Shown here: positions 4,401 through 10,998 of the stretch, one piece after another
How the letters are laid out: each line of letters starts with the position of its first letter
Numbering within the stretch: the first letter of the stretch is position 1
DNA from: an uncultured Methanosarcinales archaeon
GTDB taxonomy: Archaea; Nanobdellota; Nanobdellia; Woesearchaeales; UBA583
NCBI GenBank assembly: GCA_964351975.1
Contig: CAYGPK010000001.1
Location: forward strand, 10,393-74,392
DNA length: 64,000 bases
Direction of reading: 5' to 3'
Program-made: the position numbers and the translations under genes
Notes under the pieces: generated by a model
What the model was told of the DNA's origin: nothing
Seen by the model: only the letters and a program-made list of their open reading frames with translations
The model's database searches: none

Positions 4401-6413
4401 AACGTAATTCAATCTATTTATTTGAAATGCAAAGTCTAATTTATCAGGATACTCAAGTGGCTTTAAATTTAATTTTTTAACTTTAACAGGAAAATACACA
4501 ATTAAATCTCCTGTATCTTTATCAAGCATCCAATTAAATCTTGTAGTATCAATACTTCCATATTTAGAATCAACAGAACCTTTTGTATCCATTGCAACGC
4601 CTAGTCCACTAAATCTGGTTACTTTTCCTGGACCAATGTATTGAAATCTTGCAATTACTCCAAATTCAACATTTCCATTACCTGAACGAACATCACCAGT
4701 TTGTTCAATTTCTGCAGCGTACATTGTATTTGGAATTGTAGTTATCTCTCCTGCTCTCCACATTGTATTTCCCGCATCAAGCGTTACAACTTCATCATAT
4801 ACATTTACGTTTCCATACTTATCAGCCATAATAATACAAATAGTATTTTTTGAATCTACACCTTCAACTTTAGGAGGAGTTTTAGGATTTTGTGCATCAT
4901 TATAATCACTTCTATCAAAACTTCTTTCTTGTAGTGTAATTATAGCATCAAAATTTCCTTCACTATCAGATGTTAAAGTTGTTTTTTTACTAATTAAACT
5001 CAATAGACTCAATTGGGATTCATTCATATTTAATTCAGGTCCATCAACTCTATCATTATCTAATTGCCCAAGATTTCTATAAAAAAATGTTTTATACATT
5101 TCACAACTAACTCTATTCCCATCTCTGTCATCTGTATTTTCAGGAAAAGAAAAAATAGTCATTTCAATATTTGGTTTATTTGTTCTACCATCTATTTTTT
5201 GAAAAAAGAAATGAGCTGTTTTTGAACCAAAAAATAATTCTTCAGGATGTAAATTATCTTTTAATGGTTTCCTAATATCTGGATTAGTTCTATCAAGCTC
5301 AATTTGATGTGCTTCTTTGTATATATTACCTGCTAAATCTACTGCAATTAATGTTAAATCATTTTGTCCATCTTTTAAATTTAAACTAATTTTGATATTT
5401 TCATTTTCTACTTCTTCACTAAAATTTTTTTCATTAAAAGTATAATTTAATAAAACTGCATCTGTTGAAATATTTAATTCTAATCTTGCTTCATTTGTGA
5501 ATCTTCGTAGAGTATTTACAAATTCAATACTTGGAGGAATCGTATCTGAAATTATTTTTACCTTTGTTTCTCCATTAAAGATATTTGAATTAGTAGGGTT
5601 AGTTGTAATTAATCTTAGAGTATTCTCACCTTCTCTTAATAATGGAATTGTGAAATTAAAGCTATTTCCATTTAAAGGAATTGATTTTAAAACCCCTGTA
5701 TTTGTAATATCTCCTTCTATGTTTAATAAATAATAAAGAGGTGAATTAGAATCACTAACAACACCTTCTATTTTCATCTCTCTGTACTTTGTAATATTTG
5801 TAAAATTAGTTAGAGTTATATCATTTGGATATTTATCATAAGTTACAGTATATTCAAATTCTTTAACATCAGCTTTTGTATTTAATGGGTATGCAATAAC
5901 AAATCTTAAACTATTTTCTCCATCTACTAAATAATTATGAATACCACTAAAAGAAAAATTTGTTAACTCATCGGCAATTGTTATTGTTTTTGAAATCCCT
6001 TCTTCTTCGTCTCTATACAAAACATCTCCTTCAACGTAAGAGCTAAAAGTTAAACTTTGAGCATAATTTAGAGTTTTAAAAGTTGTGCTAGAGATATTTA
6101 TTTTGTAAACTTTCGCAGGATTGTTATTTCTAAAAATTAAAGATGCTCCAATTGGAATTATTTCATTTTTTATTGAATCATTTAATTGGATAGTTTTAGA
6201 ATTTGCAAGAACACTAGTTTTTCCAACAAAATTATCATTAACATATAAATTAACTTCTACTCCCGAAGATGCTTGTCCACTTACTATTACTTCTCCGGGT
6301 TCATATGAATTTTCATTAAATTCAAATAAAGGAAATTCTGCATAACTTAAAGAAATAAAACTAGTTAATAATAATAGAAATACAAGTATCTTGTTGAATT
6401 TTGAAAAAACCAC
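1401..6413 (-). CDS. Giant secreted/surface protein (1670 aa) with Ig-like repeats and Cys-rich central region
   Basis: Signal peptide (SYA|E); Ig-like motifs DTIPPSI and LKDGQNDLTLIAVDLAGN; many Cys in the middle third. Confidence 0.7.
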   Translation of the reverse strand: MVFSKFNKILVFLLLLTSFISLSYAEFPLFEFNENSYEPGEVIVSGQASSGVEVNLYVNDNFVGKTSVLANSKTIQLNDSIKNEIIPIGASLIFRNNNPAKVYKINISSTTFKTLNYAQSLTFSSYVEGDVLYRDEEEGISKTITIADELTNFSFSGIHNYLVDGENSLRFVIAYPLNTKADVKEFEYTVTYDKYPNDITLTNFTNITKYREMKIEGVVSDSNSPLYYLLNIEGDITNTGVLKSIPLNGNSFNFTIPLLREGENTLRLITTNPTNSNIFNGETKVKIISDTIPPSIEFVNTLRRFTNEARLELNISTDAVLLNYTFNEKNFSEEVENENIKISLNLKDGQNDLTLIAVDLAGNIYKEAHQIELDRTNPDIRKPLKDNLHPEELFFGSKTAHFFFQKIDGRTNKPNIEMTIFSFPENTDDRDGNRVSCEMYKTFFYRNLGQLDNDRVDGPELNMNESQLSLLSLISKKTTLTSDSEGNFDAIITLQERSFDRSDYNDAQNPKTPPKVEGVDSKNTICIIMADKYGNVNVYDEVVTLDAGNTMWRAGEITTIPNTMYAAEIEQTGDVRSGNGNVEFGVIARFQYIGPGKVTRFSGLGVAMDTKGSVDSKYGSIDTTRFNWMLDKDTGDLIVYFPVKVKKLNLKPLEYPDKLDFAFQINRLNYVLDDNTIPIDEANPIYFQTSMNIERPLDHSKWLTPATIESIQGFLNTTITYTETAVEYLGYASIGGVLACTGAKFWQAYEYTQLASITDPVEREKEKEKIDRRLYLICDRVASSASPYLCDGQNTDEFNSKNFIDPNKKNAEPTEFMRDGKIIGTIKAQARESCQYNSTHKGYYVTGEGKEFSEETSYNTARKVTSDIYYPKECYPVDEKTGMVNIGKMNGNMCYNPKAPDFDDTRCNFFDTGIFGDDGGSGVAGVDPSTSIISSIRCGAITDTYSHAKNLLKIQQSIYQCLEQAKIGTVKGSYCERLLGQAVCDIATNVILPEFQQNVNPRTGASQEQVERNPFSSFLGQMKANEKAFDSRYKGSLFDKAGLGTDQIINKACLAAITGDWTILTENILGAIDQNEVEPVFGPPFAESRMQGYNPLTGDLSIRYLFTYGVLSGGQRIDTKVEFICDESQPNSEYCPTGRTEASIVPGNKIRPMTLYVSKGGSKQDSIVVTDTGARFWYNVIKFTHTYQVKGETKIDVREFPIIHKQETLIAQCNFGTGVMGDGIPEGFTCDSLFEKDALISVFEIDDKTKLLPSKQKTYFEGNGIFSNLIYSVKNVDTFDQDISLAYMAVCNEGTDSQYYINEIGDTTPSKSLKETTISGTPVYDGRITERLFSNLPSIGESSNSEVVYQAKPNANIQWQIKAITTNSEIKGTYDIKEIRYFNGTSPLLTNKANTFESEEEILVNSLAFKDEVIKINFNSRPENVKFYLVDPKNPSTQILFNEFSSNELKTGTCNLYMRVLPTSQANELTKENFKTYSSIVDENIVVDDKLKTNGKIFQTTFNLGKLSENSEDEGTTYFDLTEPYNNQNICINKNTQEIEIPIKYIIQNTRNKNKELVVDYRVTSTSFGTLKSNTQNGKAKVLGINDETIAFPLSNSLKDSLDNIIDDNLKDKTWAHFFGIKPTQEFILSYNLKDGDKQIEKGEVKFTINLRDECPKIQNDLTSPSVGAS

Positions 6414-6601
6414 TTACTATAATCTCAAAAATCCAATTTATTATAGTTTTGGTTTACTTAAAAGAGGTAAATCCTTAATAATTTAAATTCAATAAAGACA
6501 TTTATAAATTACAAGGTCTTAGTAATAGTATAAAATTAGTTTAATTCTTTTTAAAAATTTAAATTTATTAATCGAATTAAACACAAATATGAAATAAAAA
6601 A

Positions 6602-6655
6602 ATGAATACAAATAAAAAAAAAATAAAAAAAAATAACATAAGAGGGGTTCTATAA
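6602..6655 (+). CDS. Putative leader ORF, 17 aa (MNTNKKKIKKNNIRGVL)
   Basis: Manual translation; contains GAGGGG SD; TAATG overlap with next ORF. Confidence 0.4.
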   Translation: MNTNKKKIKKNNIRGVL

Positions 6656-6732
6656 TGGTAATCTCAATAGTGAACACAACAAAAATTAAACAGGAATTTT
6701 TGAGCATTTACATGGAGGTGTCACAATGGTAG
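6655..6732 (+). CDS. Putative leader ORF, 25 aa (MVISIVNTTKIKQEFLSIYMEVSQW)
   Basis: Preceded by SD; internal hairpin 6680-6702; contains GGAGGTG; overlaps next ATG at 6726. Confidence 0.55.
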   Translation: MVISIVNTTKIKQEFLSIYMEVSQW

Positions 6733-6800
6733 TTTCCATGGTGAACACAACAAAAATCAAAGATTTTTGGAGTATTTTCATAAATGTGGGTGAAATCTAA
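6726..6800 (+). CDS. Putative leader ORF, 24 aa (MVVSMVNTTKIKDFWSIFINVGEI)
   Basis: Paralogous to preceding ORF; hairpin 6751-6769; contains GGGTGA; TAATG overlap with 6800 gene. Confidence 0.55.
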   Translation: MVVSMVNTTKIKDFWSIFINVGEI

Positions 6801-7270
6801 TGGTCACATTTATGTTAAATATTCCGCGTAGAAAAATCTATGAAACTATGCTTGTTTTTGAAGATGGAATGATTGAAATGAATATTCTATTATACAATAA
6901 AAATAACTTTGAAAAATTTTTGAAAACTTTTAACGCCGAGGGTTATAAAAATATTAGAAAAGGTTACTTTGAAACTAAAGCACTTTTAGTTATGTTTTTA
7001 GAAAATAGAAAGTACAACAATGAAAATGAATTTCACGATGATTTACTTAAATTAGTTAGAGATCAAAAAATGAATAATGCTCATTTGATGAAGAATAAAA
7101 ATTTAACGATGGGATTTAAATGGACTATTAAAAAAATAGATTTTGAATTTAGTAAAGTTAGAAGAATTAAAACAATGTTTGTTGCAAAAAGATTGTATAA
7201 AGATTTTGATAAATTCAACGATTATGTTCCTAAAATTTTAGAAATCAGACGTGATTTTATGAAGAAATAA
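6800..7270 (+). CDS. Hypothetical basic protein
   Basis: 156 aa ORF with SD; no recognised motif. Confidence 0.6.
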   Translation: MVTFMLNIPRRKIYETMLVFEDGMIEMNILLYNKNNFEKFLKTFNAEGYKNIRKGYFETKALLVMFLENRKYNNENEFHDDLLKLVRDQKMNNAHLMKNKNLTMGFKWTIKKIDFEFSKVRRIKTMFVAKRLYKDFDKFNDYVPKILEIRRDFMKK

Positions 7271-7292
7271 AATTTGAATTAGAATTAAAAAC

Positions 7293-8294
7293 TTATTCAA
7301 ATAAAACTTCAGATTTTTCTCCTAAATTAATCTTATTTGATTTGCCAATTAAAATTACTTCTTTTCCAATTAAAGAATCCTTTAATAAAAAACTTTTAAT
7401 TAAAGTTTGCGAATTAACTATTGAATTTCTAATTATTGAGTTTTCAATTTCGGCATCATCTCCAATTGAAGCATATGGTCCTATAATACTATTTTTAATT
7501 TTTGCAGATTTAGAAACATAACTAGGAGGAATTATAATATAATCCTCTTTACTAATTATTTTTCCACTTGATTTTTTTTGTAAAAAATATCTATTAGCTT
7601 CAAGTAAAACTTCAACTCTACCACAATCAAACCATTTTGTTACAGAAGAAGGTTTTACTAATTTATTTTTATTTTCTATATATTTTCTTATTACTTGAAT
7701 TATTCTATATTCACCTTTTTCAGTTTCTTTATTTATGTAAATTTCATCTAAAATACTTTTAACTTCTAAAATAGATTTAAAATAATAAGCACCTATAATT
7801 GCTAGATTAGATTTTGGTTTTTCTGGCTTTTCTTCAACTTCATAAATTTTATTTTCTGAGTTAATATTCATAACTCCATATTTCTCAGGAGTTAAAACTT
7901 CCATTCCAAATATTACTGCATCTGAACCTTTCTCTTTAATCAAAGATTTTTTTAAATCAAAGTCAATTAATGTGTCTCCAAATACAATATATAATTCTTC
8001 TTCTTCATTAATTTCTAAAAGGCCAAGTCTTATTGCTGAACCATCTCCATCGCGAACAACTTGCTCTACAAATTTACAGTTAATTTTAGGATAATTATTT
8101 TTTATATGAGAGATTATTGGATCTTTTTTATAACCTACTACAAAAATAATTTGCGAAGGTTCTAATTTTAAAGTCTCATCAATAACGTAGTTAAGCATTG
8201 GTTTTCCAGCAACTTCCATTAGTGGTTTTGGAGTTGTATTTGTATGTGGTTTTAACCTCGAACCTACACCTGCAACTGGAATTATTACTTTCAT
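7293..8294 (-). CDS. Sugar-phosphate nucleotidyltransferase (glucose-1-P thymidylyltransferase-like, long form)
   Basis: IIPVAGVGSRLKPHT..PKPL, EEKP, WFDCG and C-terminal hexapeptide repeats. Confidence 0.9.
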   Translation of the reverse strand: MKVIIPVAGVGSRLKPHTNTTPKPLMEVAGKPMLNYVIDETLKLEPSQIIFVVGYKKDPIISHIKNNYPKINCKFVEQVVRDGDGSAIRLGLLEINEEEELYIVFGDTLIDFDLKKSLIKEKGSDAVIFGMEVLTPEKYGVMNINSENKIYEVEEKPEKPKSNLAIIGAYYFKSILEVKSILDEIYINKETEKGEYRIIQVIRKYIENKNKLVKPSSVTKWFDCGRVEVLLEANRYFLQKKSSGKIISKEDYIIIPPSYVSKSAKIKNSIIGPYASIGDDAEIENSIIRNSIVNSQTLIKSFLLKDSLIGKEVILIGKSNKINLGEKSEVLFE

Positions 8295-10112: not shown

Positions 10113-10790
10113 TTATCTAAATAAAGAAAAACTTCTTGCTTTTGTTTCAACAAGTCCTTGTTTTTTAATTTCAAATGTTTTTGAAACTCCTTCTTTTTTG
10201 TGTTTGTGTTTTTTTAATGTAACGGTTCTTATATCTTGATCTTTATCAAATTCAACTATAGTTTTTGACCAATACTCTATTACATTTCCACCTACCATCT
10301 TTTTCTCTTTAGTATCAAAAGTTGTATACATTTGATTTACTGCAATTACAGGAATATGAAAGGTTCTTGAAATCTCAGTTAATAAACGTAGTTGTTCTCC
10401 TAATTCAGAATTTATTTTTTGTGGTGAATCTCCAAGCTTTAACCTGTAAAGCATAACGAGCGAATCGATTATTACAAGTCCAACTTGGTTAGAATTTTTT
10501 ATTTGTTTGTTTAAACTAAAAATTGTTTTTTGTTGCTCTTCAAAACTTTTTGGAGAAAAAACTAATATGTCACTTAAATTAATTTCTGGGTTTATCTGCT
10601 TTAATCTCTCAGGTGAAAATCCACCTTCAGTATCAATGTAGATTACTTTTTTTCCTTTTTCTACAGCTTTGATTATATATTCAAAACATATAGTTGTTTT
10701 TCCAGAACCAGGAGGCCCATAGATTGTTGTTATGGTATCACTTTTTAATTCACCTATTATCTCATCAAAAAATGTGTTCAGTTTCAACAT
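10113..10790 (-). CDS. radB: DNA repair protein RadB
   Basis: GPPGSGKT Walker A, YIDTEGGFSPERL, IIDS, NQ, C-terminal KH basic patch; 225 aa without RadA N-domain. Confidence 0.92.
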   Translation of the reverse strand: MLKLNTFFDEIIGELKSDTITTIYGPPGSGKTTICFEYIIKAVEKGKKVIYIDTEGGFSPERLKQINPEINLSDILVFSPKSFEEQQKTIFSLNKQIKNSNQVGLVIIDSLVMLYRLKLGDSPQKINSELGEQLRLLTEISRTFHIPVIAVNQMYTTFDTKEKKMVGGNVIEYWSKTIVEFDKDQDIRTVTLKKHKHKKEGVSKTFEIKKQGLVETKARSFSLFR

Positions 10791-10861
10791 TTGAAACCTC
10801 CAATTTTTTGTGGTATTTGTTTTTCAAAAAATACATCGAAGAATGAATTTAATTTTAGCAT
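10784..10861 (-). CDS. Leader ORF, 25 aa (MLKLNSFFDVFFEKQIPQKIGGFKC), copying the RadB N-terminus
   Basis: Manual translation; TATA ~22 nt upstream; 8/9 aa identical to RadB start; GGAGG; TGA overlaps radB start. Confidence 0.7.
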   Translation of the reverse strand: MLKLNSFFDVFFEKQIPQKIGGFKC

Positions 10862-10998
10862 GTTATTATTAAAGTATTCTTATTTATAAAAAATTGCTAT
10901 TTAAAAAATTAAAAACTGTTTAGGTGTTGGATAAATTAAATTTGATTAGGATAAAATTTTATTGAATTATTTTTAATTAAATTAAATCTTAGTTATAT

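Follow-up and report, generated by a model that had tools for sequence, protein, structure and literature searches.

We analyzed a 64,000-nucleotide (nt) stretch of DNA (contig CAYGPK010000001.1, here referred to as the window) from an uncultured archaeon of the Woesearchaeales, in which a gene for a 156-amino-acid (aa) protein (6800–7270, plus strand, from the list of open reading frames, ORFs) is preceded by a chain of very short ORFs. Two of these ORFs read through a pair of tandem units of 71 and 74 nt, and the units are probably stacked members of a lineage-wide set of small hairpin cassettes located at gene ends, through which the gene behind would be translated by relay. The source genome of the window (G000; metagenome-assembled, 13 contigs, 1.14 Mb, 27% G+C, 93% complete) was compared with the other genomes of its genus (codes of the type G007; 20 genomes in total, G000 included). 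For the 156-aa gene, the comparison covered 17 genus loci with a clear ortholog and 13 metagenome loci.

An earlier sequence-only reading of the region had described three micro-ORFs joined by stop/start overlaps and preceded by G-rich motifs, and all of these were recovered at the positions it gave, in the sequence or in the ORF list. On the plus strand, a 17-aa ORF (MNTNKKKIKKNNIRGVL, 6602–6655), doubtful in status and either a first cistron or plain promoter DNA, is followed by a 25-aa ORF (6655–6732), which reads through unit 1 (6655–6725, 71 nt), and by a 24-aa ORF (6726–6800), which reads through unit 2 (6726–6799, 74 nt). The junctions are TAATG at 6653–6657 (1-nt overlap), ATGGTAG at 6726–6732 (7-nt overlap) and TAATG at 6798–6802, and the G-rich motifs GAGGGG (6642–6647), GGAGGTG (6714–6720) and GGGTGA (6788–6793) lie 6–13 nt before the three ATGs. 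Unit 1 consists, in order, of a decayed copy of the gene start (ATG and about 22 nt), the tag CAAC, a hairpin and a 3′ part with the Shine-Dalgarno (SD) motif GGAGGTG, and unit 2 has the same parts. The hairpin of unit 1 (6680–6702, plus strand) was folded as CAAAAATT and AATTTTTG around the loop AAACAGG and is closed by a T-A pair where unit 2 has C-G. Its core is a variant, with a 7-nt loop, of a palindrome that is dispersed in the genome, while the core of unit 2 is an exact match to the palindromic core motif of this element (AAAAATCAAAGATTTTTGG, 6752–6770, plus strand; G000:C1:17144–17162). Unit 2 further contains part of the functional gene start in inverted orientation (X′, 6769–6789, plus strand), which pairs with 6804–6825, and the SD-like GGGTGA and the TAATG stop/start overlap (6788–6802, plus strand) fall in the apical loop of the resulting hairpin.

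The two units are tandem homologs: a 37-nt core is 86% identical at a 71-nt spacing, and they can be aligned over their full length with a 3-nt gap in the loop. The 71-nt tandem was not reported by TRF. The 3′ end of the 17-aa ORF (CATAAGAGGGGTTCTATA) can also be aligned to the 3′ ends of units 1 and 2, and an A-rich tract at 6594–6640 (plus strand) may be the decayed hairpin part of an older, third unit. This tract resembles a promoter with a B recognition element (BRE) and TATA box, from which transcription is predicted to start at about 6652–6655, and because it also scores as a promoter the 17-aa ORF is doubtful and may not be a real ORF. A CRISPR array was considered for the tandem and rejected, as there are only two diverged units and no match to cas1 (PF01867). 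On the minus strand (6519–6781), both units also read as ORFs with similar starts (MLKNSCLIFVVFT... and MKILQKSLIFVVFT...); since the cassette core is palindromic, these minus-strand ORFs are most likely by-products.

The palindrome of the two units was observed at many other places in G000 and in its relatives. The family core is AA(A/C)AATC-N3-GATT(T/C)TT with CAAC or CTC as a 5′ tag and GG at the 3′ side, and it also occurs in the form CAAC-AAAAATY-loop-RATTTTT-GGAG. A search with AAAAATCAAAGATTTTT (up to 2 mismatches) gave 34 matches in G000, often sharing the flanks caac...ggag or ctc...ggcac, and the pattern AAMAATCARAGATTYTTGG (up to 1 mismatch) gave 68 matches in 14 of the 20 genus genomes, as opposed to 0 for the reversed control. 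The family is visible only when the palindrome is searched alone; an nhmmer profile of four whole units recovered from G000 only the two units themselves at E < 0.004. A recurring layout surrounds the copies, with the palindrome between the two members of a direct repeat, and 9 of 18 copies examined in G000 have a flanking direct repeat scoring at least 11 (11–27 nt). Among the repeat-flanked sites in G000 are the 3′ ends of a ccdA-type protein gene and of a tRNA-Gly gene, the start of the L15e gene (a 15-nt repeat including the ATG) and a site just upstream of a pilin-like gene (a 27-nt repeat). The AlaRS start in G000 carries a variant (CTCAACAAT...ATTCTTGG) with a period of 103 nt, and the TopA start has a period of 118 nt. 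Short-range direct repeats in general formed 49 clusters in G000 against 0 in a block-shuffled genome, and were about equally frequent at the 3′ and the 5′ ends of genes. Where such repeats are internal to genes their periods are divisible by 3, except for one in a 157-aa ORF overlapping a tRNA-Gln gene.

The tRNA genes of G000 show the same arrangement at their 3′ ends. A copy of the last 18 nt (3 mismatches or fewer) was found within 260 nt downstream of 14 of the 36 tRNAs, on contigs C1–C11; two of these tRNAs have two copies, and one has 5′ copies. The repeats start in the T-loop and the inserts begin with the complement of the T-arm, GGATTTGAAC, so that an inverted partial copy of the functional end lies inside the insert here as it does at 6769–6789 and at TopA of G000. 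Arrays of 2–3 identical cassette units occur behind tRNA genes in three other genomes of the genus, with periods of 106 nt (L090, G004), 95 nt (L093, G015) and 130 nt (L070, G002), and stacking is therefore a habit of the family. The sequence-only reading had seen in the tandem units a repeatable mechanism; repetition is real and stacking is typical, but the repeated entity appears to be a hairpin insertion at gene ends rather than a dedicated regulatory leader cassette. The L090 and L093 arrays are situated at contig ends, and such arrays probably break assemblies. A kinship with tRNA introns was also considered and found no support: the three tRNA introns predicted by ARAGORN in G000 have no palindrome. 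By its geometry, a bulge-helix-bulge site would not be expected to form its exon-intron helix from direct repeats at the two junctions.

The clearest view of what such a cassette does to a gene came from TopA, where it is present in 3 of 19 orthologs. TopA of G004 has the empty site ATGGTTTATGAATTGATTATT|TCTGAGAAG, and at exactly the same point G014 and G019 contain 79 and 73 additional nt, respectively, in which CTC and the palindrome are followed by a GGAGG-containing spacer and by the ATG and codons 2–7 for a second time. The neighboring non-coding DNA has diverged by only about 9% between G004 and G014. TopA is the clean empty/filled pair; at the 156-aa gene, the unit-free locus of G018 aligned ambiguously to those of G007 and G016. 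The promoter-proximal copy of the TopA start matches the empty site at 20 of 21 nt, and the gene-proximal copy differs at 4 sites, all of them synonymous. Because the promoter-proximal copy equals the empty site, the displaced "echo" reads as the native start, and the functional start as a recoded copy which either arrived with the cassette or changed quickly after insertion. Synonymous and non-synonymous differences between the two copies number 4 to 1 in TopA of G000, 4 to 0 in G014 and 3 to 0 in G019. At the 156-aa gene the copies show many non-synonymous differences in G000 and are identical in G007.

At the 156-aa gene itself, a count of units at orthologous loci, a comparison suggested by the sequence-only reading, gave two in G000, one in G007 and one in G016 (3 of 17 genus loci), and none at the other 14 genus loci or at any of the 13 metagenome loci examined. 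The unit of G007 opens with a copy of its own gene start that is identical at 28 of 28 positions, including 5 nt before the ATG, and that of G016 with a 20/20 copy of its own gene start. Over the next 35 nt or so (ACTCAAAAATCAAAGATTTTTGGTCGTTTTTCATA), both units have about 85% identity with unit 2 of G000, although the proteins encoded at these loci are only 45% identical, and the single units of G007 and G016 are homologous to units 1 and 2. In G000, the direct repeat is kept between units 1 and 2 (27–37 nt) and has decayed relative to the gene: the DNA of the gene start scored 16 against the unit start, below the null 95% value of 22 and thus at chance level, and the likeness of the peptides MVVSMVN and MVTFMLN was not above chance (not among the top scores). 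The N-terminal echo claimed in the sequence-only reading is therefore not above chance in G000 taken by itself, and it gains credibility only from G007 and G016 with their exact copies of 28 and 20 nt.

A 5′ insertion has particular consequences in a genome of this kind. In the sequence upstream of 844 long ORFs in G000, a TATA signal was evident at positions −29 to −22 relative to the ATG, and an SD signal of general occurrence was not. The share preceded by an SD 5-mer was 4.7% among first or solo genes (n = 802), 25.2% among operon-internal genes (n = 222) and 2.8% among random windows. On account of this TATA position and these percentages, the organism appears to be mostly leaderless, with SD motifs used for internal cistrons. 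In a mostly leaderless genome, an insertion at the 5′ end would therefore strand the native start as a micro-ORF, and the gene behind it would become a second cistron that is led by an SD motif and probably coupled. A weight matrix for promoters, derived from the 844 upstream regions (99th percentile of the window background, 3.9) scored 5.8–6.5 in the A-rich tract, with predicted starts at 6651–6655, that is, at the ATG of unit 1. Among 12 units with a displaced start (periods of 60–118 nt), all 12 ORFs are open through the cassette and stop between −11 and +11 nt from the real start; the chance is 0.07–0.76 per case, and the product is 0.023 for the four cases found without an ORF criterion. 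An SD motif precedes 7 of the 12 real starts, as opposed to 4.7% of first or solo genes, and SD 5-mers precede all three starts at the 156-aa locus. Real starts without an SD motif (AlaRS, L15e, G007/G016) instead have T/A-rich, TATA-like sequence in front of them. Given the 12 open ORFs and the 7 SD motifs, translational coupling would be a reasonable consequence of insertion.

In the arrangement that we propose, each cassette would be a non-coding piece of about 40–110 nt with a direct copy of a gene end on either side of it. When that end is a 5′ one, the order would be the native promoter and native start (the displaced echo), the palindrome CAAC/CTC-AA(A/C)AATC-loop-GATT(T/C)TT-GG, the inverted partial copy, often an SD motif, and last the functional start joined to the gene. 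Two such units would be stacked here, and a decayed third may lie upstream. Ribosomes would engage the displaced start, at or close to the transcript's 5′ end, and read across the cassette, making a meaningless peptide of 24–25 aa. Their stop codon would overlap the next start (ATGGTAG, TAATG), which would be reached by termination-reinitiation with help from the SD motif, and a ribosome terminating there would in addition open the hairpin in which that start is held. We infer the transcription start, the translation of the micro-ORFs and their coupling from sequence features. For stop/start overlaps with an upstream SD motif, tight termination-reinitiation coupling is reported in archaea and bacteria (Huber et al. 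2019, PMC6728339). The locus resembles those coupled cistrons in its TAATG (−1 type) overlaps and its upstream SD motifs. Unlike the pairs of real genes treated in that study, the upstream "genes" here would be relics of 24–25 codons, chained two or three deep and with one overlap of 7 nt.

Several observations weigh against this proposal. The promoter matrix is driven by A and T, and the score of the A-rich tract may reflect its composition; weaker promoter matches (3.8–4.7) predict starts at 6579–6593, and transcription may alternatively begin near 6580–6593. The loci of G007 and G016 have neither an SD motif nor a stop/start overlap, and coupling is therefore not a conserved property of the unit. 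The protein tree does not place G000 as sister to G007 and G016 (moderate support), so that one ancient insertion would need several subsequent losses, or the cassette moved sideways. The copy of the gene start in the G000 units has decayed to chance level, as noted above, and their membership in the family thus rests on the palindrome, the layout and the homology to G007 and G016. No recognizable family hairpin is present in the units at radB and SMC. At the start of the 156-aa gene the mean unpaired probability (−14 to +4) was 0.63, above that of shuffled sequences; the SD motif and AUG lie in a loop and not in a stem, and sequestration would therefore be only partial. Finally, no enzyme for cassette mobility was found in G000: this 93%-complete genome has no match to a Y1 transposase (PF01797) or to Cas1 (PF01867), and its tyrosine recombinases, one XerA-like protein on another contig and one weak second match, are not near the inserts. 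To our knowledge, no transposase accounts for repeats of 11 to about 50 nt at the flanks.

Two origins may be considered for the cassettes. Mobile insertion would fit the exact boundary of the empty/filled pair, the palindrome common to the cassettes and the recoded gene end, while an error of fold-back copying would fit the direct-inverted-direct arrangement. We suggest tentatively, and with more doubt than conviction, that the cassettes may represent an undescribed class of non-autonomous mobile cassettes of DPANN archaea, carrying a replacement gene end and switching leaderless genes to a relay. If this were true, the class would insert at gene and tRNA ends, bringing along both a recoded direct and an inverted copy of the end and, where the target is a 5′ end, an SD motif as well; a selfish element would rewrite the mode of translation initiation, which the host may exploit for control.

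Integrative elements can bring a replacement gene end, as prophage e14 and phage 21 do in the 3′ end of E. coli icd, and integration into tRNA genes leaves partial tRNA copies as attL and attR. As at e14/icd, direct repeats of the gene end lie on both sides of foreign DNA with the gene intact, and the functional copy can differ from the displaced copy only synonymously or nearly so (TopA, radB, but not the 156-aa gene); as in tRNA-gene integration, tRNA repeats are present and start in the T-loop. Unlike e14/icd, where kilobases with an integrase are inserted, the inserts here are 40–110 nt with no ORF of their own, many different targets carry the same small palindrome with no integrase nearby, 5′ ends are also hit, and units stack in tandem. 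The relevant sections of PMC9897764 describe partial tRNA gene copies, at kilobase islands only. A further comparison is with small palindromic repeats of the repetitive extragenic palindrome (REP) type and of the MITE type, miniature transposable elements with inverted repeats (PMC3733652, PMC3184786). The cassettes share with REP and MITE elements their small dispersed palindromes, a one-sided conserved tag (here CAAC/CTC), a mostly non-coding and non-autonomous character and occasional clustering. In contrast to REPs, which have no target duplication, and MITEs, with short duplications of fixed length, the repeats here are 11 to about 50 nt long and include functional gene ends, and no transposase of the Y1 (RAYT/IS200) type was found in G000. 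The combination of palindrome, inverted copy, recoded copy and flanking repeats of 11–50 nt fits no mechanism of transposition or integration known to us, and no description of such cassettes was found in the literature, article supplements not being covered.

An unlikely alternative is plain local tandem duplication of the gene's 5′ end by replication slippage followed by decay, in which case the hairpin would be decayed coding sequence. Units 1 and 2 clearly are a tandem pair, a colinear alignment of unit 2 with the next 48 nt of the gene can be drawn, and duplications across a gene boundary are expected to be tolerated. However, the non-copied part of the units was not significantly similar to the coding sequence that follows in the gene (p = 0.04–0.65 in six comparisons), and it shares an exact palindrome of 17–19 nt with its flanks with unrelated loci and with other genomes. 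In G007 the 28/28 identical repeat flanks 52 nt without likeness to the gene, and the TopA insert is absent from G004 at a precise point.

Slightly less probable still are dedicated regulatory leader peptides, that is, micro-ORFs selected as sensors of the attenuation or arrest type, whose N-terminal likeness to the gene would be functional. A case for comparison is the leader of radB, a 25-aa ORF (MLKLNSFFD..., 10784–10861, minus strand) which is a displaced copy of the radB start and whose ATG coincides with the start predicted by the best promoter match of the radB region (score 6.1). The sequence-only reading had likened the units to this leader, and the dimensions that it gave are correct (78 nt, 71-nt start-to-start spacing, 7-nt overlap); their equality with those of unit 1 is a coincidence, since the periods of the 12 measured units span the range given above. 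The radB leader is related to the units in layout, but the family hairpin was not recognized in it. Where displaced and functional copies differ, almost every change is synonymous and falls on a third position (7 to 1 synonymous to non-synonymous in radB; TopA as above), all 12 ORFs stay open up to the real start, and the layout of hairpin and SD motif resembles attenuators; these points favor a leader peptide. At TopA, however, the synonymous changes sit in the functional copy and the displaced copy is simply the sequence of the empty site; no selection on a micro-ORF is therefore needed, and reading the displaced copy as the native start explains the mostly synonymous differences of radB and of TopA in G000 without it. 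The peptides are not conserved past the copied codons (units 1 and 2, G007, G016), and neither micro-ORF peptide had a match in Pfam or NCBIfam. No unit was present at 14 of the 17 genus loci or at any of the 13 metagenome loci, and no copy of the radB leader at the 19 other radB loci. Cassettes of the same family also lie at 3′ ends and at the ends of tRNAs, positions that rule out a leader peptide. Bacterial attenuators of the trpL and ermCL type have a short ORF, a hairpin and a sequestered downstream start. The locus is like them in its short ORF, its hairpin and a downstream start within predicted structure, and unlike them in that no conserved peptide or regulatory codons were seen, the unit is not conserved among orthologs, and the cassette is also found at 3′ ends. 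Upstream of the radB promoter there are, as a separate observation, one or two TTTATCC motifs (10925–10975, minus strand), which were also seen by eye at other radB loci of the genus (e.g., L046–L049, L053, L054, L056, L057, L060) and look like a conserved radB operator.

Structure in the RNA was computed for the region as well, and raises a further, rather improbable, alternative: a non-coding structured 5′ untranslated region (UTR), acting as an RNA switch or thermosensor, in which the displaced copy would compete with the real start for its complement and the ORFs would be incidental. The region 6640–6860 is predicted to be more stable than shuffled sequences (z = −3.8), as is 6726–6860 (z = −3.3), with 0 of 200 shuffles as stable. 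In both the minimum-energy and the centroid folds, 6769–6789 pairs with codons 2–9 of the 156-aa gene (6804–6825) through 20 bp in two stems, which include a 10-nt perfect inverted repeat (I16); GGUGA and the AUG of the gene are left in the loop, and a smaller hairpin holds the AUG of unit 2. An inverted copy able to pair with the functional start was also found at TopA of G000. For G007 and G016, pairing with GUUUUUCAUA is possible both for the copy and for the real start, and the apical palindrome shows an exchange between T-A (unit 1, G016) and C-G (unit 2, G007). This exchange comes from only two independent lineages and is thus no more than a hint of covariation. Moreover, the displaced copy of G000 no longer matches the real start, so that competition would be lost there, the folds of G007 and G016 are not more stable than shuffled sequences (z = −0.8 and −0.3), and a search of 6000–7500 against Rfam gave no match at E up to 1. 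The palindrome is equally found at DNA sites that are unlikely to be 5′ UTRs.

An assembly artefact from a collapsed or expanded repeat, conceivable in a metagenome-assembled genome of 13 contigs, can practically be dismissed: the two units differ at many positions (86% identity in the core), and a contig from a second sample of the same study (X2, 519 nt) covers 6539–7057 with both units and 0 differences, so that the tandem is not a product of one data set.

With small hairpin cassettes as the probable explanation, micro-ORFs that mimic the N-terminus of the gene behind them can be understood as displaced native starts, and no new regulatory code would be needed. A leaderless gene hit at its 5′ end would become an SD-dependent and probably coupled second or third cistron. 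For annotation, cassette units in small archaeal genomes give rise to spurious small ORFs and tRNA fragments and cause gene starts to be called wrongly.

The 156-aa gene behind the units is restricted to the genus, being found in 18 of 19 other genus genomes and in 0 of 41 genomes from other families of the order. Its protein belongs to no Pfam or NCBIfam family, has a strongly conserved N-terminal motif (NIPRRKIYE) and is predicted to be an all-helical six-helix bundle (predicted local distance difference test, pLDDT, 92.5). The best structural matches of this model were HEPN toxins of MNT-HEPN pairs, and they were weak (Foldseek E 0.26; VIA Z 9.9, root-mean-square deviation 3.7 over 131 aligned residues, a range common for helical bundles). 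The Rx4-6H motif of HEPN is not visible in the conserved EIRRD end of the protein. A minimal nucleotidyltransferase gene is located at 70–378 of the window, too far away for the two to be called an MNT-HEPN pair. The neighbors of the 156-aa gene are a 1670-aa gene upstream on the opposite strand and, in conserved synteny, radB 3 kb downstream.

Two minor observations concern other repeated sequences. Just upstream of the minus-strand 1670-aa gene, a stretch of about 50 nt within 6411–6476, (C)CACT...TTTATTATAGTTTTGGTTTACTTAAAAGAGGTAAAT, recurs slightly changed at the corresponding position of many orthologous loci, which by eye include a first group of ten (L010, L017, L020, L021, L023, L025, L026, L029, L031, L032). 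It contains a small hairpin, GGTTTAC...GTAAATC, had no match in Rfam, and is probably a conserved promoter or 5′ leader of this gene, which encodes a large surface protein. Elsewhere in G000, a motif of the form ACAAGAACG(A/C)A(C/A)GAAG(C/T)AAG(C/T)GT...GTGTCTCGTAT occurs as tandem pairs with periods of 39 and 53 nt (C3:121879–121960, C4:33386–33470 and C3:73640–73670), followed by CTTTTGCCAT, the complement of an ATGGCAAAAG start.

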